Part shown: positions 1 to 9,897 of the stretch, one piece after another
Layout: each line of letters starts with the position of its first letter
Position numbering within the stretch: the first letter of the stretch is position 1
NCBI GenBank assembly: GCA_038227875.1
Contig: JBBRPR010000013.1
Span: forward strand, 122,365 to 186,364
Reading direction: 5' to 3'
Length of the DNA: 64,000 nt
Source: Planctomycetota bacterium
Lineage (GTDB): Bacteria > Planctomycetota > SZUA-567 > H5-PLA8
Made by a program: the position numbers and the translations under genes
The notes under the pieces: model-generated
What the model was told of the DNA's origin: nothing
What the model saw: only the letters and a program-made list of their open reading frames with translations
Database searches by the model: none

Positions 1-159
1 AACCCACGGCACGAACGCATTTATCAGCGCCTGCTGAACATGAAGACCATCGCGACCAGCGCGGGCACCAACGGTCTGCGCAATGCGCCCGCCGTGTTGA
101 TGCGCCTGGACCTGAAGGACTTGCCGGAACGCTGGCTGCAGCCCATGTCCGTCGGTTGA
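1..159 (+). CDS. C-terminal fragment of a FeeM/OxzA-like N-acyl amino acid synthase (GNAT-type), cut by the window edge
   Basis: Own translation of frame 1: NPRHERIYQRLLNMKTIATSAGTNGLRNAPAVLMRLDLKDLPERWLQPMSVG*. NPRH..xY and NAPAVLMRLDL match the C-terminal motifs of this family. Not in the ORF track. Confidence 0.7.
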   Translation, partial: NPRHERIYQRLLNMKTIATSAGTNGLRNAPAVLMRLDLKDLPERWLQPMSVG

Positions 160-290
160 TGAGAATTTAAAACATTTCTTTGGTCAAACCGGGCGCAGCT
201 GGTTTTGCATAGTGGAAGACAGTCGTAACTCACGTTTTAGATCGGGAGTCGCCAGGAAACGCACAATGTAGTTCAACGGAGCCGTTCATC

Positions 291-1244
291 ATGCCCAGCA
301 GCGCGGTTTTCGAATACGACAACGCCTTCGCCCGCAACCTCGGGTTGGTCAACGTTGATGAACAGTCCCGCCTGCGCCAGACCCGCGTCGGCTTGCCGGG
401 ACTAGGCGGCGTCGGCGGTGCGCATCTGCAGGCGCTGGCCCGCATGGGCATCGGGGCGTTTCATCTCGCCGATCCGGATACGTTCGACGTCGTCAACATG
501 AATCGCCAGCTCGGCGCGTCGATGAACACCGTCGGACGCTCCAAGGCGGAAGTCGTCGGCGAATCCTTGAAGACCATCAATCCCGACGCGCAGGTCGAAC
601 TCTTCCGCGACGGCATCAACGCACAGAACATCGATGCTTTCTTGGATGGCGTCGACGTCGTCGTCGATGGACTGGAGTTCTTCCGCATCGAAACGCGGCG
701 CATGCTCTACCGCGCCTGTCGCGAACGCGGCATTCCGGTCGTCAACGCCGGCCCGATCGGCTTTGGCGCGGCAGTGCTGGTCTTCATGCCCAACGCGATG
801 TCCTTCGACGAATACTTCCGCATCAACGACGCGATGACCCGCGCCGAACAGTTGCTCGCGATGGCGCTGGGACTGGCGCCCGGCCTGGTCAGCGATGTCG
901 ATCCCGCGCGCGTCGACGTGGAGAACGAGAAGGGCCCCGCCCTCGCATCGGCCTGCTTTCTCTGCGCCGCCGCCGCTGCGACGGAAGTGCTCAAGCTGGT
1001 CTGCGGTCGAGGACGGGTCACCGCCGCGCCGCGCGGCATCTACTACGATCCATATCGCGGCAAAACCGTCCGCCTCCGCCCGCGACCCGCGTTGACCTCC
1101 AGCCTGCGCGGCCGGGTCCTGCGCTGGATGAGCTTCCGCCGCTTTCCCGCTTTCCGCACCATGCACGAGCGTGAATTGCTCGAGCGCAAAAACATTCGCC
1201 AGCTGGATCTCGAGGCTGCCTCCCATGCCGCGCCAACGGTCTGA
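291..1244 (+). CDS. ThiF/E1-like adenylyltransferase
   Basis: YDNAFARNLG, GLGGVGG, DPDTFDVVNMNRQ, GRSKAE motifs. Confidence 0.9.
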   Translation: MPSSAVFEYDNAFARNLGLVNVDEQSRLRQTRVGLPGLGGVGGAHLQALARMGIGAFHLADPDTFDVVNMNRQLGASMNTVGRSKAEVVGESLKTINPDAQVELFRDGINAQNIDAFLDGVDVVVDGLEFFRIETRRMLYRACRERGIPVVNAGPIGFGAAVLVFMPNAMSFDEYFRINDAMTRAEQLLAMALGLAPGLVSDVDPARVDVENEKGPALASACFLCAAAAATEVLKLVCGRGRVTAAPRGIYYDPYRGKTVRLRPRPALTSSLRGRVLRWMSFRRFPAFRTMHERELLERKNIRQLDLEAASHAAPTV

Positions 1245-1479
1245 AAAAGAAGTCGATGAACTGATCGCGCTCGCGCGCACGTACTGCGAAATTCGCGCGC
1301 GATTGAACGATGCCCCTGCCGATTGGCCGGCCGACGAACGCACGCGCGCGCACCTCGCCCAGCTCGACGAGAAAATCGCGCTGCTGAACAGCTACAGCGA
1401 GCTGGACCGCAAGAAGGCCCGCGCCATCCGCAACACCAACATCGTCCAATTGCATCGCACCCGGAGGGCGGCCCGATGA
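1225..1479 (+). CDS. Small helical hypothetical protein (84 aa)
   Basis: ATG at 1225 after GAGG; stop overlaps the next start (ATGA); GC-typical codon usage. Confidence 0.6.
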   Translation: MPRQRSEKEVDELIALARTYCEIRARLNDAPADWPADERTRAHLAQLDEKIALLNSYSELDRKKARAIRNTNIVQLHRTRRAAR

Positions 1480-2546
1480 ACGTCATGGAATGCATTCCGC
1501 ACGTGGCCGCGCCGACACTGCAAAAATGCCTGGCCGCCGCCGTGCGCGCGCCGTCCGGCGACAACACACAGCCCTGGCGTTTTGAAACGGATGACTCCGC
1601 TGGACGCATTTCCGTATTCATCGACGAAACGCGCGATTCATCGCCGATGAACTGCGGGCAGACCATGTCGCGCATGGCCTGCGGCGCGGCGGTGGAAAAC
1701 ATCCTGATCCAGGCCGCCGCGGATGGCTGGGCCGCCTCCGTGGAAGAAGGCTTCGGCAACCACGTCGCCACGATTCAGCTCGATCAGGAATCGCCGCTGA
1801 GCCCCGTCACCCGCCAGACGCTGAACGCCATATACAATCGCGTCAGCAACCGCCGCCTTTACGACGCCAGGCCCGTGGATCCGCTTGTGCTCTCCACGCT
1901 GAATGAATCGACCCCGCTCCTCGACGACGTCCGCACGCATTGGTGCACCGAACGCAGCCGCATCAACACGCTTGCGCCGATCATTGGCGCGGCCGACGGC
2001 ATTCTGTTTGGCGAAAGTTCAATGCGCAATGCCTTCCTCGCCAACGTCCGCTTCGATCGTCCGGTGAATGAAGAAGTCGACTCCGGTCTTTCGCTGGCGT
2101 CGCTGGAGCTCTCCCTGCCTGACCGCGCCGCCATGCGCATGATGAGTCATATTCCCAGCGTGGTGCTGAAAGCCACCGGCGCTTCGCGTCTCTTCAACCT
2201 GCACGCGCGGAAGCTGATCAAGAGCGCCTCCGGCGTTTGCGCGATCTCTGTTCCAGAAGCACACACGTCGTATTTCCAGGCCGGCCGAGCCCTCCAGCGG
2301 GCATGGCTGGTGCTCACGGAACTGGGCTTCGCCGTGCAGCCGATGATGTCCCTAATGGTCTTGCTGAATGCACTGCATCACGGATCGTCGCAACTGAAGG
2401 TGGCACTAGGCACTAAGCGGATAATTGAATTAGCAGCACAATTTGACACAGCAATTCCGGAATTCACCTGCAGAAAACCCCTGTTCCTGCTACGCTTTGG
2501 ATACGCCAAATCACCGAGCGGACGGACAGGGCGATTGCAACCATGA
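1476..2546 (+). CDS. Nitroreductase-family (FMN-dependent) protein
   Basis: AAVRAPSGDNTQPWRF, RVSNRRLY, AGRALQRAWL..AVQPM; GGAGG upstream of ATG 1476. Confidence 0.88.
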   Translation: MNVMECIPHVAAPTLQKCLAAAVRAPSGDNTQPWRFETDDSAGRISVFIDETRDSSPMNCGQTMSRMACGAAVENILIQAAADGWAASVEEGFGNHVATIQLDQESPLSPVTRQTLNAIYNRVSNRRLYDARPVDPLVLSTLNESTPLLDDVRTHWCTERSRINTLAPIIGAADGILFGESSMRNAFLANVRFDRPVNEEVDSGLSLASLELSLPDRAAMRMMSHIPSVVLKATGASRLFNLHARKLIKSASGVCAISVPEAHTSYFQAGRALQRAWLVLTELGFAVQPMMSLMVLLNALHHGSSQLKVALGTKRIIELAAQFDTAIPEFTCRKPLFLLRFGYAKSPSGRTGRLQP

Positions 2547-3688
2547 TGAGTATTGGATGGCGGAATTTGAAGCGCGATCCCTGGCGCGCGGCCGTCGCCG
2601 TGCTCGGGGTTGTCTTCGCTGTCGTCCTGGTCACTGTCGAAGTCGGCATGCTCATGGGCCTCGTCCGCAACGCCTCGCTCCTGATCGATCAATCTCGCGC
2701 CGATCTCTGGGTCTCCACCGTCGATGTGAAAACCTTCGACTTCGCCACGCCCGTGGACAACCGCAAGCGCTACCGCATCGCGGCTGTTCCCGGCGTCGAT
2801 CATGTCGAAGAATTCAATGTCACCTACAGCGTCTGGAAATTGCCCAGCGGCGGAAACGCCAACTGCCAGGTCATTGCCCTCGACGAACACGGCACCCTCG
2901 CCCCGCCCTTGAACCTGATCGAAGGCAGTGTGGAAGCGCTGCACAACCAGGACGCCGTAATCATCGATAAAGGCGACTGCGCCAAGCTGGGCAACATCCA
3001 CGTCGGCGACACGGTTGAAATCCTCGAACGCCGCGCCAGAGTCGTCGGGCTGACGCAGGGCATGAGTTCCTTCACCACCACGCCGTATATTTTCACGTCT
3101 CTGCGCCGCGGCGAGCGCTACGGATACCTGACTTCCGATTCCGGTTCGCCCAGCGGCAAGCAGTCGATTTATTTTCTGGTCAAACTCAGTCCCGGCGCCG
3201 ATCTCGAAACCGTCCGCAATGCCATCACCTCGGGAATTCCCGGCGTCGAAGTTCACACGCGCGAGAGCTTCAGTTACCGCACGCGAAAGTATTGGCTGAT
3301 CGAGACGGGCGTGGGCCTGGGCTTCCTGGCCGCGGCCGTGCTGGGCTTGCTCGTCGGCGGCGTGATCGTCTCGCAGATTCTTTACGCCATGACCATGGAA
3401 AAACTCCCCGAGTTTGGCGTGATGAAAGCGCTCGGCGCGGGCATGGGTGAAATCTCCCGCGTCGTCCTCGACCAGGGCCTGATCTGCGGCGGCGTCGGGC
3501 TGGTCATCGGAATCGCCTGCAGTTATGGCATCGCCGCGGCGGCAGCGGCGGCGGGAACCACGGTTGAAATTCCCACTGGACTGCTCATCGGCGTTTCGGT
3601 GATCACCGCATTGCTGTGTACGTTTGCGTCCCTGTTTTCAATTCTCCGCTTACGGCGCGTCGAGCCGGGGATGGTGTTCCGCACATGA
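2543..3688 (+). CDS. ABC exporter permease, DevC/FtsX/MacB-like
   Basis: N-terminal TM, periplasmic ADLWV domain, C-terminal TMs with EFGVMKALGA. Confidence 0.88.
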   Translation: MMSIGWRNLKRDPWRAAVAVLGVVFAVVLVTVEVGMLMGLVRNASLLIDQSRADLWVSTVDVKTFDFATPVDNRKRYRIAAVPGVDHVEEFNVTYSVWKLPSGGNANCQVIALDEHGTLAPPLNLIEGSVEALHNQDAVIIDKGDCAKLGNIHVGDTVEILERRARVVGLTQGMSSFTTTPYIFTSLRRGERYGYLTSDSGSPSGKQSIYFLVKLSPGADLETVRNAITSGIPGVEVHTRESFSYRTRKYWLIETGVGLGFLAAAVLGLLVGGVIVSQILYAMTMEKLPEFGVMKALGAGMGEISRVVLDQGLICGGVGLVIGIACSYGIAAAAAAAGTTVEIPTGLLIGVSVITALLCTFASLFSILRLRRVEPGMVFRT

Positions 3689-4431
3689 CCCCCACAATCT
3701 CGGTGCGCTCCGTCTCCAAGCACTACGCAGGCGGCGAATCCTGGGCCGTCCGCGGCATCTCGCTCTCCGTGTTTCCCGCTGAAGTCACCGTGCTGATGGG
3801 ACCCTCGGGCAGCGGCAAGACAACGCTGCTCTCCATGATCGGCGGCGTCCTTACGCCCACCGAAGGCTCGCTCAGTGTCTGCGGCGTGGAACTCAGCGGC
3901 TGCGACGAATCGCAATTGCAGAGCTTCCGGCGCGGCCAGATCGGTTTCATTTTCCAGAGCTTCAATCTGCTCTCGTCGCTGACCGCGCTGGAAAACATTG
4001 AACTGGCGCTTTCCCTGCGCGGCAAAGGACCCTCGACTGCCGCGGAACTGCTCGACCATGTCGGCCTGGCCGCCAAAGCGCAGGCGTATCCGATGGAACT
4101 GTCCGGCGGACAGCGCCAGCGCATCGGCGTCGCACGCGCGCTGGCCGGCGATCCTCCGGTGCTCCTGGCCGACGAACCGACCGCCGCGCTCGATGCCTTT
4201 CAAGGCCGCCGCGTCATGGATCTGCTCCGCACCCGCGCCCGTGAATCCGGCACGACGGTGCTGGTCGTCACGCACGATCCGCGTGTCCGTGAATTCGCCG
4301 ACCGCGTGATCGAGATGGAAGATGGAAAACTCAAGCGCATCGTCCGCCGCGTGCGGCCGGAGCAGGCTGAGGATGGGCAGTGGTTGGTTTCCCGAACCGG
4401 CACGATTGTAGCCGAGACTGCGAGCACCTGA
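3685..4431 (+). CDS. ABC exporter ATP-binding subunit (DevA/LolD-like)
   Basis: GPSGSGKTT, LSGGQRQR, LLADEPT, VTHD; ATGA overlap at 3685. Confidence 0.95.
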   Translation: MTPTISVRSVSKHYAGGESWAVRGISLSVFPAEVTVLMGPSGSGKTTLLSMIGGVLTPTEGSLSVCGVELSGCDESQLQSFRRGQIGFIFQSFNLLSSLTALENIELALSLRGKGPSTAAELLDHVGLAAKAQAYPMELSGGQRQRIGVARALAGDPPVLLADEPTAALDAFQGRRVMDLLRTRARESGTTVLVVTHDPRVREFADRVIEMEDGKLKRIVRRVRPEQAEDGQWLVSRTGTIVAETAST

Positions 4432-6077
4432 TGGCCAAAGAGGCCAAAGAACCCTCCGAGTCCACCCCTGCCGCCGCCCCCCAGGCTGCCGCCCATGATC
4501 TCATGGACGCGGAAGCGGCTCGTCAGCTCTTGAAAATGCCGGCGGCCAAGTTCGAATTGCTCATCTCCACCGGACAGGTACGCGTCTTCCGTTCCGACGG
4601 ACAGCCGTGCTTCCGCCGCGAAGACATTGCCGCGCTGGCCTTGAAGCGACAGGCCGCGCCGGCCAAGAGCGCCGCACCGCGCAAAGTTGCTCCGCCTGCG
4701 GCTGCTCCCGCCGCACCGGGCGCATCTGCCGCGAAATCCTCTCCGCGCAGTGAAGCCGTGAAACCGCCGGCGTCCAAGGCCACTCCTTCCATTCCCAAGC
4801 CTTCTGAACCCGACGATATGGAAGAGGAGGAATTTGAAGAACCGCCGCCGCCCGCGCCGCGCCAGAAATCACGCGCCGTCTCGCGGTTCCTGTTGCCGGC
4901 CGCGATCGTGATCGCGATCATCGCATTCGCCTGGACCTTCAACACCGCCAGCAAACACAGCGAGCTGCCGATGGCAGTACCGCCGCCCGCGCCGGGAGCT
5001 TTCGCCAATTCGAAGGCGGCACCGGGGCTGATCGAATCCGTCTCTGGCGAACGCCCGCTCTCCTTTGAGGTAGGTGGAAAAATTCACGCCGTCCTGGTCG
5101 AAGAAGGCCAGTCCGTGAATGTCGGCGATACGATCGCTGAGCTGGAAAACGCGGACCTGAACGCGAAGCTGAAATCCAGCCAGGCCGATTTAAGCGCCGC
5201 CGAGGCGAAGCTGGGCATGCTCAATGGCAATCTCGAGAGCGATCTCAAGAAATCCGAAAGCGAAGTCGCACGGTTGAAGGCCGAAATACTCCTGCTCGAA
5301 CCCCGCAAGGAAGACATTGAGCGCGCGCGCGCCGAAACGGCCGCAACCGAGGCCGACTGCACGCGCCTGACTGAGGACGCCAAGCGCAACGCCGACATCC
5401 ATGCTCAGAATACGGGAGCGGTGCCGCAGCAACTCGTCGATCAGACGAAACGGCTCGCGGAAGCAGCCGCCGCAAAATGCAACGCCTCGAAAGCCCAGCT
5501 TCACGCTCTGGAAGCCGGTTCGCGTCCCGAGGAAAAGGATCGTCTCAGTGCCATGCTCGCGAGCGCCGAAGCCGAAGTCTCCCGCCAGAAAACCACCAGC
5601 GCGTATCAAATCCAGTCCGTTCAGGCGCAGGTTGATCAGTCCAAAGCGCAAGTCGAGCTGGTCAAGGCCGACCTGCAGAAGACGCGCATCGTATCGGCCA
5701 GTTCCGGCACGGTGGTGCGGAAGTACATGCATCCCGGCGAAGTGATTGATGCGCTCCACCCGCAACCGGTGGTCACCGTTGCCGACCTGACCCAACTGCG
5801 CGTCCGCGCCGATGTCGACGAAGCGGACTTTCCGGGCATCTCCGTCGGTCAGCGCGTGAAGATCACCGCGGACGCCTGGGAGGAAGGAAAATTCCTGACT
5901 GGAGTTGTCGAACGCATCAGCACCACCACCGGACAGAAGCGCTTCTCCACCGGCGAAGCCCGCGAGAAGATGGACATCAAGATCGTCGAAACGATCGTGA
6001 AGTTCGACGCACCGCCGCCACCCAAGCTCGTCAAGCTCAACCTGCGCGTCACCGCCTACTTCGAAATCTCGAAGTAA
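4431..6077 (+). CDS. HlyD/DevB-like efflux periplasmic adaptor with N-terminal HTH-like domain and Pro/Ala-rich linker
   Basis: TM, lipoyl-like halves (VGGKIHAVLVEEGQSV; IVSASSGTVVRKYMHPGE), coiled coil, VRADVDEAD. Confidence 0.88.
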   Translation: MAKEAKEPSESTPAAAPQAAAHDLMDAEAARQLLKMPAAKFELLISTGQVRVFRSDGQPCFRREDIAALALKRQAAPAKSAAPRKVAPPAAAPAAPGASAAKSSPRSEAVKPPASKATPSIPKPSEPDDMEEEEFEEPPPPAPRQKSRAVSRFLLPAAIVIAIIAFAWTFNTASKHSELPMAVPPPAPGAFANSKAAPGLIESVSGERPLSFEVGGKIHAVLVEEGQSVNVGDTIAELENADLNAKLKSSQADLSAAEAKLGMLNGNLESDLKKSESEVARLKAEILLLEPRKEDIERARAETAATEADCTRLTEDAKRNADIHAQNTGAVPQQLVDQTKRLAEAAAAKCNASKAQLHALEAGSRPEEKDRLSAMLASAEAEVSRQKTTSAYQIQSVQAQVDQSKAQVELVKADLQKTRIVSASSGTVVRKYMHPGEVIDALHPQPVVTVADLTQLRVRADVDEADFPGISVGQRVKITADAWEEGKFLTGVVERISTTTGQKRFSTGEAREKMDIKIVETIVKFDAPPPPKLVKLNLRVTAYFEISK

Positions 6078-6108
6078 CGCGAGTTGTGAGTACAGCTTCG
6101 GAAAACTC

Positions 6109-6143
6109 AAAAAAAGCGGCGGATTTTCTCTGCCGTTTTTTTT
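6109..6143. terminator. Rho-independent terminator, possibly bidirectional
   Basis: AAAAAAAGCGGCGGA-TTTTC-TCTGCCGTTTTTTTT hairpin flanked by A and T tracts. Confidence 0.8.
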
Positions 6144-6258
6144 GTATCACCGCCTCCGCACCTCAAATTACAATTAAAGGGGCACCTTCCGACTGCCGAT
6201 AATGTTCACGACGGTCAAACGTTGAACTTACGGCACGTTGCGAAAGGACGAGCGCCCC

Positions 6259-7164
6259 ATGAACCGACTCTGTTCGTTTTTGAAGCCCTGGACCATTAAC
6301 GCCGCCCGGGTTGGCCTGGTGGGACTGCTGCTGGCTGGCGTCACCGGCTGCGACAAGGACGATCAGGACGGGCCTGTTCCCGCCTCCTCGACCAAGGTCA
6401 TCCCGACGCGACCCGAAGCACTAAGCCTTGCGCGCCAGGACATCAGGGCCGGCAACGGTCCCAGCGCTCAACAGCGCGTCGAAGCATACCTGAAAGAAAA
6501 TCGGACCACGCCGTTCCGCGCGGAAGCCGAATACCTGCTCGGCCAGGCCTTCACCACGCAGGGCGATTTCGACACCGGCAAGAAGCATCTGGAAATCGCC
6601 ATCGACGAAGCGCAGGATCGCGATCTCAAGGCCTTCGCCATGCTCGGCCGCGCCAACTGCAATATGGAAATGAAGGCTTACCACCTCGCCAGCCGCCAGT
6701 ACCACTGGCTGGAAACGATGTACCGCGACGTGAAGGGTTTGCCGCAGGACGAAATCATGTTCAAGCTCGGCCTCTCCTCCAAGCGCGCCGGAGCTCCCGA
6801 AACCGCCGACTACTGGTTCAACCGCGTGATTGAACTTTACGCCACCGGCCCGTACGCCGAAGACGCCAAGCGCGAGAACTCCAAGTACACGCCCTCGAAC
6901 TCCAGCGATAAGCCGCTGGTCTACTCGCTGGAATTCAAGAATTACAATGATGAAAAGAAGGCCAACGAAGAAGCCGATATTCTCCGCGCCAAGGGCTACC
7001 GCGACGTGGAAGTCATCCCGACGTCACGCAATGGTTTCGCGACGTGGGAAGTCCACATCGGCAAGTTCTACAATAAGAACGACGCCCAGCTCGCCAAGAC
7101 CGACGCCGATCTCGCCGGCCTCGACACGCACATTCGCCCGGCCATCGTCGAACCGATGAAATAG
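6259..7164 (+). CDS. Lipoprotein with TPR repeats and a C-terminal SPOR-like domain
   Basis: Lipobox LAGVTGC; TPR helices (AEYLLGQA, IMFKLGLS); SPOR-like tail (ADILRAKGY..WEVHIGKFYNKNDA). Confidence 0.75.
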   Translation: MNRLCSFLKPWTINAARVGLVGLLLAGVTGCDKDDQDGPVPASSTKVIPTRPEALSLARQDIRAGNGPSAQQRVEAYLKENRTTPFRAEAEYLLGQAFTTQGDFDTGKKHLEIAIDEAQDRDLKAFAMLGRANCNMEMKAYHLASRQYHWLETMYRDVKGLPQDEIMFKLGLSSKRAGAPETADYWFNRVIELYATGPYAEDAKRENSKYTPSNSSDKPLVYSLEFKNYNDEKKANEEADILRAKGYRDVEVIPTSRNGFATWEVHIGKFYNKNDAQLAKTDADLAGLDTHIRPAIVEPMK

Positions 7165-7274: not shown

Positions 7275-7381
7275 TAACGGCGGGAAGCGGGATTGGGGAT
7301 TCGCCGATGCGGATTCGCGACGAATCCCGATTCCCGCCGTTGCATGAGCATAAACACGTTCTCCGACCAAGGCGGGACCGC

Positions 7382-8854
7382 ATGCCAAAGAACGTCCTCT
7401 TCATCATCGCCGACCAGTTCCGCGCCGACTGCCTTGGCGCCGCCGGAAATCCATTAATCAAGACGCCGAATCTCGACGCACTGGCCGCGGCGGGCGTGCT
7501 GTTTTCGCACGCATTCATCCAGACGACACCTTGCGGACCCAGCCGCATGTCGATCTTCAATAGCCGCTACCTCTGTTCCACGCGCGCCGTCGAGAATATG
7601 ACTCCGTTGCCCGACGCCGACGACAATCTGGCCGCGGCGTTGCGTCATGGCGGCTACGCGCCGGCGCTGATTGGCTACAACGACTACGCTATCGATCCGC
7701 GCATCCTTCCGGCCGGCGATCCGCGCACGGTCTCGCTCAGCTACGACAACGTACTTCCCGGCTTCGATTGGGTTCTTAATCACACTTACGATTCCAGCGA
7801 GTACTTCGATTGGCTGCGCAAAAAGGGCTATCCCGAAGAACTCCTGAGCCACAAAGCGATCCACGCGCCCGCAGTGCCGCCGCAAGGCCCCGGCGATCAC
7901 CTGCCGCTCCACTACCCCGCCCGCTACCGCGTCGAACACAGCGAATGCCGCTTCCTGACCGAAGTCGCCACAGATTGGATCCGCGCGCGCCCGGAGACGG
8001 GCAACTGGTTCCTCAGCCTCAACTACATCAAGCCCCACCCGCCGCGCATCTGCGCCGCGCCGTACCATCAAATGTACGACCCCGCGAAAATGCCCGCCGC
8101 CAATCGCCGCGCCGAAGAACTCACCGATCCGCAGGTCAGCAAACGCTTCATGCACCACCATCCGAAACTCGTCTCCGAGCGCGATCTCCGTGAAACGCAG
8201 GCGTGTTACTACGGAATGATCTCGGAACTCGACGAGAGCCTCGGCCTGCTCTTCGCCGAGCTCAAACGCACCGGGCGCTGGGACGACACACTGATCATCT
8301 TTTCATCCGATCATGGTGAATACCTGGGCGATCATTACCTGCTCGACAAAATGTACTTCTACGATGAGACCATGCGCGTCCCGATGATCGTGCGCGATCC
8401 GTCGAACTCCGCCGACGCCACGCGCGGAAAGCAGTTCAACGGCTTCGTCGAATCGATCGACGTGGCGCCGACCATCTTGCAGCACCTCGGCATCCCCGCG
8501 CCGGAACGTTTCCAGGGCCGCAGCCTGCTGCCGGCACTGCGCGGAGAAGCCAACGCGCTCAAGACGGAAATCTTCTACGAGGACGATTTCCGCTCCAACC
8601 GCGTCCCGGGGATCGATCCGGAACGCAGTCTGCTGTGGGTGATCCGCGATCACCGCTTCAAGTACGTGCAGTTCGCCGATGAATCGATGCCGTCGTTCCT
8701 CTTCGATCTGAAATCCGATGCCGGCGAGCAGGTCAATCTGGCGGCGCGCCCCGAACACGCGGCGACGGTAGCCGACTTCTGCCAGCGGCTGTTGCGCTGG
8801 CGCATGAAGCACGAAGACCACAGAATGGAACGTTGGGCCTCACAGTACCGATAG
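7382..8854 (+). CDS. Sulfatase/phosphonate monoester hydrolase-like enzyme (alkaline phosphatase superfamily)
   Basis: NVLFIIADQFR, CGPSR formylglycine motif, KPHPP, SDHGEYLGDH. Confidence 0.9.
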   Translation: MPKNVLFIIADQFRADCLGAAGNPLIKTPNLDALAAAGVLFSHAFIQTTPCGPSRMSIFNSRYLCSTRAVENMTPLPDADDNLAAALRHGGYAPALIGYNDYAIDPRILPAGDPRTVSLSYDNVLPGFDWVLNHTYDSSEYFDWLRKKGYPEELLSHKAIHAPAVPPQGPGDHLPLHYPARYRVEHSECRFLTEVATDWIRARPETGNWFLSLNYIKPHPPRICAAPYHQMYDPAKMPAANRRAEELTDPQVSKRFMHHHPKLVSERDLRETQACYYGMISELDESLGLLFAELKRTGRWDDTLIIFSSDHGEYLGDHYLLDKMYFYDETMRVPMIVRDPSNSADATRGKQFNGFVESIDVAPTILQHLGIPAPERFQGRSLLPALRGEANALKTEIFYEDDFRSNRVPGIDPERSLLWVIRDHRFKYVQFADESMPSFLFDLKSDAGEQVNLAARPEHAATVADFCQRLLRWRMKHEDHRMERWASQYR

Positions 8855-8874
8855 TGTTTCCGAACGGAGCACCC

Positions 8875-9897
8875 ATGAAATCATTCGCAAGCGACAACTA
8901 TGCCGGCGTTCACCCGGCCGTTCTGGATGCCATCGGCAAGGCCAACGTCGCGCACGCGCGAGCGTACGGTTACGATGAGGTCACGGCCGAAGCAGAAGCC
9001 CTTTTCAAGCGGGAGTTTGACGCCTCCATCGCCGTGCATTTTGTGCTGATCGGCACCGCGGCGAATGTGCTCTCGATCAAAACGCTCGCCACGTCATACG
9101 AAGCCGCGATCGTCTCCCAGGACTCGCACCTCAACAACGACGAGTGCGGCGCGCCCGAGCATCTCGCCTGCAAGTTGCGCCCCATCCCCCCGACCCATGG
9201 CAAGCTGCGCCCGCAGGACCTGGAACCGTGCTTCATCAATCTCGACGAACACCGCGTCCGGCCGAAAGTCATCTCCATTTCGCAGTCCACCGAATGGGGC
9301 ACGGTTTATTCCATCGCGGAGACCCGAGCGCTCGCGGACTTTGCCCACAAGCACGGCTGCTACCTCCACGTCGACGGCGCGCGCATCGCCAACGCGGCGG
9401 CGTCGCTCAACGTTTCGCTGCGGCAGCTCACCGTCGATGCAGGCGTCGATGTGCTCTCCTTCGGCGGCACGAAAAACGGAATGATGTGCGGCGAAGCCGT
9501 GGTCTTTTTCGATGGCGCGCTCGCGAAGGATTTCAAATACATCCGCAAGCAGAACATGCAGCTCGCCTCGAAGATGCGTTTCATCTCCGCGCAGTTTGTG
9601 GCGATGCTCACCAATGAACTCTGGCGCAAGAACGCGGCGCATGCCAACGCCATGGCCAAAATGCTGGCCGAAAGCATCCGCGGCGTGGCGCGCGTGAAAA
9701 TCATCGAAAGCGTCGACGCCAACGCGCTTTTCGTTCAGCTTCCGCCGGAATGCGTCGAGCCGCTGCGCGAACGCTTCCCCTTCTATCTCTGGAAGGAACG
9801 CGAATCGATCGCGCGCTGGATGACCGCGTTCGATACCACGCCGGAAGAGATTCGCGAATTTGCCGCGCTGGTTGCGAAGATCTGCGCCGCCAAGTAA
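8875..9897 (+). CDS. ltaE: Low-specificity L-threonine aldolase
   Basis: FASDNYAG, HVDGARIANA, LSFGGTKNG (PLP lysine), LASKMRF. Confidence 0.9.
   Translation: MKSFASDNYAGVHPAVLDAIGKANVAHARAYGYDEVTAEAEALFKREFDASIAVHFVLIGTAANVLSIKTLATSYEAAIVSQDSHLNNDECGAPEHLACKLRPIPPTHGKLRPQDLEPCFINLDEHRVRPKVISISQSTEWGTVYSIAETRALADFAHKHGCYLHVDGARIANAAASLNVSLRQLTVDAGVDVLSFGGTKNGMMCGEAVVFFDGALAKDFKYIRKQNMQLASKMRFISAQFVAMLTNELWRKNAAHANAMAKMLAESIRGVARVKIIESVDANALFVQLPPECVEPLRERFPFYLWKERESIARWMTAFDTTPEEIREFAALVAKICAAK

Follow-up and report, generated by a model that had tools for sequence, protein, structure and literature searches.

A planctomycete operon that probably makes an acyl-oxazolone or N-acyl-dehydro-amino-acid lipid and carries its own exporter

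Positions 1 to 6077 of a 64,000-nucleotide stretch of planctomycete DNA, here called the window, hold the end of a gene for a synthase of N-acyl amino acids (NAS), followed by genes for a ThiF-family enzyme, a small protein, a nitroreductase-type flavin oxidase and a three-part ABC exporter. We conclude that this locus is probably an operon for an acyl-oxazolone or N-acyl-dehydro-amino-acid lipid with a built-in exporter. The conclusion draws on the identities of the genes, their coupling as an operon, their conserved synteny, natural fusions of the same activities and an adjacent sigma-factor gene. The window corresponds to contig C13:122365-186364 of a genome bin of 9.3 Mb in 176 contigs (completeness 88%), and all operon genes lie on its + strand. 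Since contamination of the bin is 4%, copy numbers given below hold for the bin and may not be those of one chromosome.

The window opens within the NAS gene, of which it holds the last 52 codons (1..159, + strand). This tail matched the last 36 positions of the Pfam FeeM model (E 1.8e-6; 28.2 bits, cut-off 27). Genome DNA upstream of the window supplied the complete gene (window -533..159, 230 aa), which matched FeeM positions 2-158 of 158 (E 6.8e-34). The gene upstream of ThiF is thus a full-length FeeM-family N-acyl amino acid synthase, confirming the acyltransferase that an earlier note on this DNA had supposed from the tail.

The next gene (291..1244, + strand, 317 aa) encodes a ThiF-family adenylating enzyme, presumed to be an ATP-dependent cyclase. 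Its Pfam ThiF domain (E 1.4e-47) starts at residue 14. The protein scored 356 bits on NF006077 (cut-off 266) and 293 bits over positions 22-275 of NF011424, a family of fused ThiF-nitroreductase proteins of 679 aa whose cut-off of 1170 applies to the whole protein. The housekeeping models gave 95 bits for MoeB (cut-off 449), 95.5 for ThiF proper (275) and 78 for TcdA (304). Invariant in an alignment of six ThiF sequences were the glycine-rich loop GLGGVGG, N71-R72-Q73, K85 and D126, which from MoeB/ThiF structures we take to be the ATP/Mg site. A quick maximum-likelihood tree placed the enzyme among ThiFs linked to NAS or nitroreductase, some of them fused forms, and away from the MoeB/ThiF-like genes of the genome itself. 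Within this tree it fell in a 12-row clade (SH-aLRT 100) made up of five copies from the bin and seven planctomycete loci; the fused ThiF-nitroreductase forms were scattered across several other clades, and the ThiF halves of three of them (L072, L043 and L083) also exceeded the NF006077 cut-off. Scores far under the cut-offs, together with the tree position, ruled out a housekeeping MoeB, ThiF or TcdA role, and the enzyme belongs, as had been predicted, with ThiFs of the kind found fused to nitroreductase and not with TcdA/MoeB.

The nitroreductase gene (1476..2546, + strand, 356 aa) encodes a superfamily member, probably of the Acg/TyzC type, a flavin oxidase presumed to act as a desaturase. 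It matched the nitroreductase halves of two longer families, at positions 367-712 of 722 in NF005901, the Rv1355c family (346 positions, E 3.8e-50), and at positions 322-668 in NF011424. Against the PDB, its first ~90 residues, including the RAPSxxNTQPWR stretch, aligned with Acg (2ymv, E 4.7e-8). ThiF and nitroreductase therefore match the two halves of NF011424, a family that, we infer, contains OxzB itself. A further family, NF011425 (989 aa), was matched in order by NAS (positions 37-201), ThiF (312-578) and nitroreductase (610-797), and a protein of 1036 aa from a Desulfovibrio metagenome-assembled genome (MAG) spans NF011425 positions 4 to 985. Because this natural triple fusion exists, the three activities can be taken to work together. 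The matches to both halves of the fused protein and the triple fusion support the earlier note in reading the locus as a split-domain pathway of OxzAB type.

Three genes on the + strand complete the operon: a DevC-like or MacB-type ABC permease (2543..3688, 381 aa), a DevA-like ABC ATPase (3685..4431) and a DevB-like membrane-fusion adaptor of HlyD type (4431..6077) that has a long Ala/Pro-rich extension at its N-terminus. The permease matched Pfam MacB_PCD (E 9.5e-15) and FtsX (E 2e-13), the ATPase ABC_tran (E 1.1e-31), and the adaptor HlyD_3 (E 2.4e-13) together with HlyD_D23 and Biotin_lipoyl_2. The part set of a MacB-type (type VII) ABC exporter is thus present, with MacB_PCD, FtsX, ABC_tran and HlyD_3/HlyD_D23 all above gathering scores. 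Scores on the Dev models were 117.4 bits for TIGR01185 devC (cut-off 290.35), 232.1 for TIGR02982 DevA (295.8) and 95 for TIGR02971 DevB (129). As all three lie below the cut-offs, "Dev-like" is a best-match label here and not a statement of family membership. Like DevBCA and MacAB pumps, the exporter combines a permease that has one FtsX domain and a MacB periplasmic core with a separately encoded ATPase and an adaptor of HlyD type; it differs from DevBCA in its gene order (C-A-B), in an adaptor N-terminal extension of ~190 aa and in the lack of a TolC-like gene in the operon. The DevBCA-like exporter that had been proposed is accordingly made of real genes, conserved in synteny with ThiF, that match the DevBCA families below cut-off. 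By reading of the translation, the DevB N-terminus (window 4431-5000) carries an Ala/Pro/Glu-rich extension of ~150-190 aa before the membrane segment, with no Pfam match. The DevB paralogue on contig C9 of the bin is alignable solely from residue 208 on.

Coupling of these genes was read from their junctions. Family matches and junctions led us to revise three starts, to ATG 1476 for the nitroreductase, ATG 3685 for DevA (overlapping the DevC stop) and ATG 4431 for DevB. On this reading all junctions between ThiF and DevB are overlaps: 20 nt for ThiF and the small gene, a common ATGA for the small gene and nitroreductase, for nitroreductase and DevC and for DevC and DevA, and TGATG for DevA and DevB. 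The only non-overlapping junction is the 131-nt gap from NAS to ThiF. Folding of 6095-6150 revealed a hairpin at 6108..6143 with an A-run, a GC stem and a T-run (-20.9 kcal/mol, z -4.43; 1 of 200 shuffles was as stable), and with the A-run on one side and the T-run on the other it is terminator-like in both directions. A consensus terminator scan made no call on the + strand, leaving this hairpin unflagged, and a sigma-70 promoter scan of 1-7000 found none. The stop/start overlaps described in the earlier note were therefore borne out from ThiF to DevB, with NAS-ThiF as the exception, and the closing terminator it placed after the last gene corresponds to a strong hairpin by folding, though the consensus scan flagged nothing. 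All of its gene calls, from the NAS-like tail to the permease, ATPase and adaptor, proved real by Pfam and NCBIfam matches and, for the small gene, by conservation.

Two sets of alternative frames were discarded along the way. The TTG start at 1323 for the nitroreductase was disfavoured, as family matches start at residue 56-60 of the long open reading frame (ORF) and the preceding stretch is Arg/Pro/His-rich. Long minus-strand ORFs at 402-1343, 2378-3256 and 5190-6110 were taken to be high-GC shadows; 5190-6110, the sole one scanned, had no Pfam match.

To place the locus among its relatives, we scanned one genome per GTDB species with the ThiF alignment, which returned 80 loci. Seven came from Planctomycetota MAGs, at 60-68% identity; the others, mostly from Betaproteobacteria, were at 42-51%. 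The closest ThiF relatives are thus Planctomycetota, in agreement with the origin that had been guessed for this DNA. An ORF check of the 80 loci found ThiF and nitroreductase fused in 6 and separate, with the nitroreductase directly downstream, in 23, so that the split form is the commoner among them; since this check counted same-strand downstream nitroreductases only, divergent arrangements are undercounted. NAS lay within 4.5 kb in 25 of the 80 loci. A DevC homologue of >40% identity was nearby in four, all planctomycete, and the order NAS-ThiF-(small)-(nitroreductase)-DevCAB was found in four of the seven Planctomycetota loci (L015, L017, L018 and L019). Besides the source bin, 15 genomes in a sample of 400 from the phylum carried an NF006077 ThiF over cut-off, five of them among the eight sampled from the window's own family-level group. 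Short flanks showed further ThiF-DevC pairs in genomes G021, G381 and G004, several without nitroreductase, and NAS-ThiF-(small)-DevCAB operons free of nitroreductase were present in G006, G012 and G021 and on the bin's own contig C9. Linkage to DevCAB thus recurs in Planctomycetota, in some cases without nitroreductase, and it appears to be new.

The small ORF between ThiF and the nitroreductase (ATG 1225, stop 1479; + strand, 84 aa) is a real gene, as judged from conservation and composition. Its GC content by codon position was 0.67/0.46/0.79, and that of its neighbours 0.62-0.68/0.45-0.50/0.72-0.82. Four genomes from the family-level group of the source bin (G004, G006, G012 and G002) have a homologue at this place in the operon, and the bin itself has two more copies (contigs C49 and C89). 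Each of the seven loci with the gene has it between ThiF and DevC. The gene after it is the nitroreductase in four of the seven and DevC in three; of these three, G006 and G012 lack a nitroreductase and C89 has it between ThiF and the small gene. The extra subunit claimed for this operon is accordingly a real gene with a slot conserved across related loci. A profile search of 5.8 billion proteins retrieved just 16 clusters of this protein, 82-95 aa long, all hypothetical and from Planctomycetota where labelled. The protein belongs to no Pfam or NCBIfam family. Across 18 sequences it is conserved over its full length, with no hypervariable core, and E9, R18, C21, S56 and E59 are invariant. Its AlphaFold2 model has three helices (pLDDT 72), with no PDB match by Foldseek at E <= 0.001 and a best score of 0.79 against the ESM Atlas, under the useful range. 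The gene is missing from six of the twelve ThiF loci of the planctomycete clade, two of which (L017 and the bin's contig C105) retain ThiF, nitroreductase and DevC; because of these absences the protein is an accessory and not a core part. It seems to be new and confined to the planctomycete clade, and we would guess, with little confidence, that this helical accessory subunit couples ThiF to the pump or serves as a chaperone between them.

Directly upstream of NAS lies the gene for a membrane-tethered extracytoplasmic function (ECF) sigma factor of 489 aa (C13:120248-121714, window -2116..-650, + strand). The protein scored 84.5 bits on TIGR02937 (cut-off 42.9) and had Pfam sigma-70 regions 2 and 4 only, the pattern that defines an ECF sigma factor. 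It has one hydrophobic segment (residues ~252-270) and a C-terminal domain of 215 aa, modelled as a ConA-like beta-sandwich (pLDDT 87) with weak PDB matches to calreticulin, galectin-like and legume-lectin folds (TM 0.44-0.50, E ~1e-4). The bin holds 13 paralogues of the same layout (466-533 aa), with C-terminal domains merely 16-30% identical to that of the window sigma. FeeM matches in the bin number 19, and 15 of them have a sigma-like gene within the 3 kb upstream, in the same orientation; in 2000 draws of random positions the mean count was 0.6 and the highest 5. Sigma-like genes also flanked NAS genes in five of the seven planctomycete loci, and searches with the window sigma as query found none by NAS in the other 73 ThiF loci. 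The tethered sigma factor probably drives transcription of the operon. No mention of a sigma/NAS pairing was found in the literature checked, of which main texts were covered, and "N-acyl" and "acyltransferase" are absent from the main text of the ECF reclassification paper PMC7826278. The layout of one sigma factor per synthase in this bin seems to be new.

Gibbs sampling upstream of 14 sigma genes yielded a T-rich "TTTTCAGA-TC" element 50-140 nt upstream of about half of them, with sites that include C13 at about 120149, C67, C2, C6, C51 and C97. Its information content of 11.9 bits was barely above that of eight shuffled controls (10.3-11.2). A stretch similar to the element occurs in the NAS-ThiF spacer, at window ~165-190.

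How such an operon could work is suggested by two characterised systems. In Proteobacteria OxzA and OxzB make N-acyl oxazolones, the tyrazolones and phenazolones, which hydrolyse within hours at pH 8; for arylidene oxazolones absorption maxima of 330-360 nm are reported (bioRxiv 10.1101/2020.06.11.147165). In the split pathway of Mycobacterium tuberculosis, acylation falls to TyzA; TyzC, a nitroreductase-superfamily protein of 372 aa, carries out the desaturation using O2, and the ThiF protein TyzB (318 aa) closes the ring at the expense of ATP (PMC10404671). By analogy with the Oxz and Tyz systems, the FeeM-type synthase of the window would transfer a fatty acyl group from acyl-ACP or acyl-CoA to an amino acid, probably an aromatic one (Tyr, Phe or Trp). 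The Acg/TyzC-type flavin oxidase would then desaturate the alpha,beta bond of the amino acid using O2, and ThiF would adenylate the carboxylate with ATP, allowing the amide oxygen to close the ring to a 4-arylidene-oxazol-5-one. Family membership and linkage further suggest that the MacB-type DevC/DevA pump and the DevB adaptor would expel the lipid through a TolC-like duct encoded elsewhere, under control of the tethered sigma factor. Once exported, the oxazolone may be hydrolysed to an N-acyl dehydro-amino acid comparable to the stieleriacines, and so may be the final product or a short-lived precursor.

Several observations weigh against this proposal. The nitroreductase scored 135.6 bits on the Acg family, under the curated cut-off of 199, and all three exporter proteins fell under the curated DevBCA cut-offs. 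The operon encodes no outer-membrane TolC-like duct, the bin having four OEP-family genes elsewhere. Since the sister operons of G006, G012 and C9 lack a nitroreductase, ThiF must have a role independent of desaturation. In the producers of stieleriacines, thalassotalic acids and kyonggic acids, NAS, ThiF and nitroreductase form a conserved set, yet no oxazolones were detected and the role of ThiF was termed enigmatic (PMC12479983). Knockout of the in-cluster nasY2 of Stieleria left stieleriacines undiminished, and nasY1, located elsewhere in the genome, lowered production when disrupted (PMC12479983). Given the knockout without effect and the absence of detected oxazolones, the role of ThiF and nitroreductase is unproven even in Stieleria, as far as the available part of that report goes.

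The main rival is a different use of ThiF, in which no oxazolone end product is made: the N-acyl amino acid would be adenylated for joining to another nucleophile, or pass through a transient azlactone only, and a different conjugate would be exported, with the nitroreductase as optional tailoring. The nitroreductase-free operons of G006, G012, G021 and C9 and the "enigmatic" ThiF of producers without oxazolones (PMC12479983) are as this scheme would have them. However, both characterised systems with the NAS/ThiF/nitroreductase set yield oxazolones (bioRxiv 10.1101/2020.06.11.147165; PMC10404671), and Pfam and NCBIfam scans found no candidate second substrate or ligase partner encoded in the operon. 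Hydrolysis within hours at pH 8 would moreover explain a failure to detect oxazolones (bioRxiv 10.1101/2020.06.11.147165). We consider such a use of ThiF unlikely, though it deserves to be kept in mind. Somewhat less likely still is that the product is a structural envelope lipid and not a secreted signal or antibiotic, inserted by DevCAB in the outer membrane as in heterocyst glycolipid export. The best matches of the exporter are indeed the DevA, DevB and DevC families, and Tyz oxazolones were found only in cell pellets of M. tuberculosis and of a Rhodococcus host, in a report that also notes that N-acyl amino acids can serve as membrane constituents (PMC10404671). But 19 FeeM genes paired with sigma factors look more like variable specialised metabolism than a core function of the envelope, FeeM is patchy, with no match in 28 of 40 relatives, and stieleriacines act on other bacteria in biofilms (PMC7293339).

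A small ORF whose neighbours encode a ThiF, an enzyme of nitroreductase fold and an exporter of ABC/HlyD type also recalls the pathways of ribosomally synthesised and post-translationally modified peptides (RiPPs). The 84-aa protein would then be a precursor, modified by ThiF (as by MccB or PaaA) and by the nitroreductase (as by SagB), lipidated by the FeeM/GNAT-like enzyme and exported by the pump; its invariant Cys and Ser would suit this role, and PaaA and MccB are among the PDB relatives of ThiF (E 1e-9 to 5e-7). We regard this as very improbable: half of the twelve clade ThiF loci do without the small gene, L017 and C105 keeping ThiF, nitroreductase and DevC all the same, and the protein lacks the variable core of a precursor. 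In addition, ThiF has no N-terminal peptide-clamp extension, its Pfam domain beginning at residue 14, no operon gene has a YcaO or peptidase domain in Pfam and NCBIfam scans, and NAS, ThiF and nitroreductase occur as natural triple fusions that lack such a peptide. The oxazolone or dehydro-amino-acid operon with a built-in exporter thus remains the reading that we prefer.

The split arrangement is less new than the earlier note had supposed. TyzABC is characterised (PMC10404671), and a stieleriacine cluster has been published from planctomycetes (PMC7293339, PMC12479983). For Stieleria maiorica a cluster proposed in 2020 comprises four NAS genes, a TcdA-like dehydratase leading to a cyclic intermediate, an oxidoreductase, "putative transporters" and a regulator (PMC7293339), and Stieleria makes N-acyl dehydrotyrosines with NAS, a separate ThiF and a separate nitroreductase as the candidate cluster (PMC12479983, PMC7293339).

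We compared the window with TyzB, TyzC and OxzB by published descriptions and family models, and not by direct alignment. Like the window, TyzABC consists of three separate proteins, with an acyltransferase of FeeM/LuxI-like fold, a ThiF of ~318 aa (317 in the window) and a monomeric oxidase of 372 aa (356 in the window), and a transporter gene, mmpL9, adjoins (PMC10404671). Unlike the window, it belongs to another phylum, TyzA is 322 aa long and mostly confined to mycobacteria, the genes are divergent where the window has one co-directional operon, and the transporter is of MmpL and not of MacB/DevCAB type; the available description of Tyz includes no small helical protein or tethered sigma. 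OxzAB of Pseudoalteromonas rubra and other Proteobacteria has NAS directly upstream of the ThiF and nitroreductase activities, as here. OxzB is one fused protein, however, where the window has separate ThiF and nitroreductase genes flanking a third, small one, and oxzAB as described in the available text is a two-gene operon without the pump genes of the window. The clusters of S. maiorica and S. neptunia share with the window the phylum, multiple NAS copies, and a ThiF (there annotated TcdA-like) and a nitroreductase or oxidoreductase encoded by genes of their own; they differ in having a methyltransferase and a fatty-acid desaturase and in being more dispersed, again as far as these are described. 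Among the 80 loci returned, Stieleria was not in the ThiF clade of the window.

Since the core chemistry of NAS, ThiF cyclase and nitroreductase-type desaturase is established, the locus adds a phylum-level example and not a new reaction. This kind of pathway is already described in Planctomycetota, mostly as unclustered in the accounts available; as a variant, this one stands out by its orphan small subunit, a Dev-like pump under translational coupling, sister operons free of nitroreductase and the sigma-per-synthase layout. A literature search joining N-acyl amino acid, ThiF, nitroreductase and ABC transporter found no paper. The value of the locus lies in its combining known chemistry with a pump, with a sigma factor tethered to the membrane and with the orphan small subunit. 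Where acyl-oxazolones and N-acyl-dehydro-amino acids are located, what they are for and how they are switched on is left unsaid in the available portions of the published work; for asking whether the product is exported, whether export needs desaturation and whether a sigma factor with an outward-facing domain exerts control, the operon and the sister operons without nitroreductase make a clean set of test cases.

FeeM genes were patchily distributed among the 40 relatives searched: G004 had 24 matches, G021 ~47 rows and G028 13, nine others had 1-4, and 28 had none. The 19 NAS genes of the bin, and the three of the 40 relatives with at least 13 matches, suggest that these bacteria hold a large family of lipid metabolites yet to be explored. 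FeeM enzymes are relatives of LuxI-type synthases. One could speculate that the sigma-NAS units form up to ~19 orthogonal autoinduction circuits, in which the FeeM lipid, exported by DevCAB in the case of this operon, or a cue released by it, would be sensed by the lectin-like outer domain of the cognate sigma factor, which would switch its own operon on, with the 84-aa protein coupling ThiF and pump. We think this scheme improbable; were it true, one planctomycete would have a quorum-sensing-like architecture with sigma factors replacing LuxR. FeeM domains also occurred fused to the C-terminus of B12-binding radical SAM proteins of 858 and 1178 aa, at L137:1261-3837:+ (G021) and L139:2464-6000:- (G028) respectively. 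Locus L138 has two FeeM proteins of 792 and 743 aa, the rest of both without a Pfam match.

The bin contains five NF006077 ThiFs over cut-off, a sixth just below it with two in-frame stops, and five Acg-like nitroreductases. The cluster in the window is the sole one with all seven genes intact on one contig, and the paralogous clusters on C105, C89, C64 and C9 show decay. DevC is in three frame-shifted fragments at C105:14128-14426 and truncated at C89:16913-17662, and only fragments of DevC, DevA and DevB remain at C64:12049-13323. Contig C9 has the order sigma-ThiF-NAS-DevCAB without nitroreductase, its ThiF (C9:140978-141832) being interrupted by two in-frame TAG stops. The end of C17 (ThiF to 153090 of 153190) and the start of C49 (a C-terminal ThiF remnant, the small gene at 232-486, nitroreductase and DevC) look like one cluster, apparently cut in two by the assembly within the repeated gene for ThiF; beyond DevC, C49 has no match to DevA or DevB.

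A second, divergent module lies ~10-12 kb upstream of the window, on the minus strand at C13:109501-112634. Its sigma-like gene is 48% identical across the sigma domain, its ThiF-like gene 31% identical (107 bits on NF006077, below cut-off), and a FeeM NAS completes it; nitroreductase and pump are absent. On the other side of the operon, downstream of the hairpin, the genes seem unrelated and encode a TPR/SPOR-like protein (6238-7164), a sulfatase (7307-8854) and an enzyme of the beta-eliminating lyase family (8833-9897).

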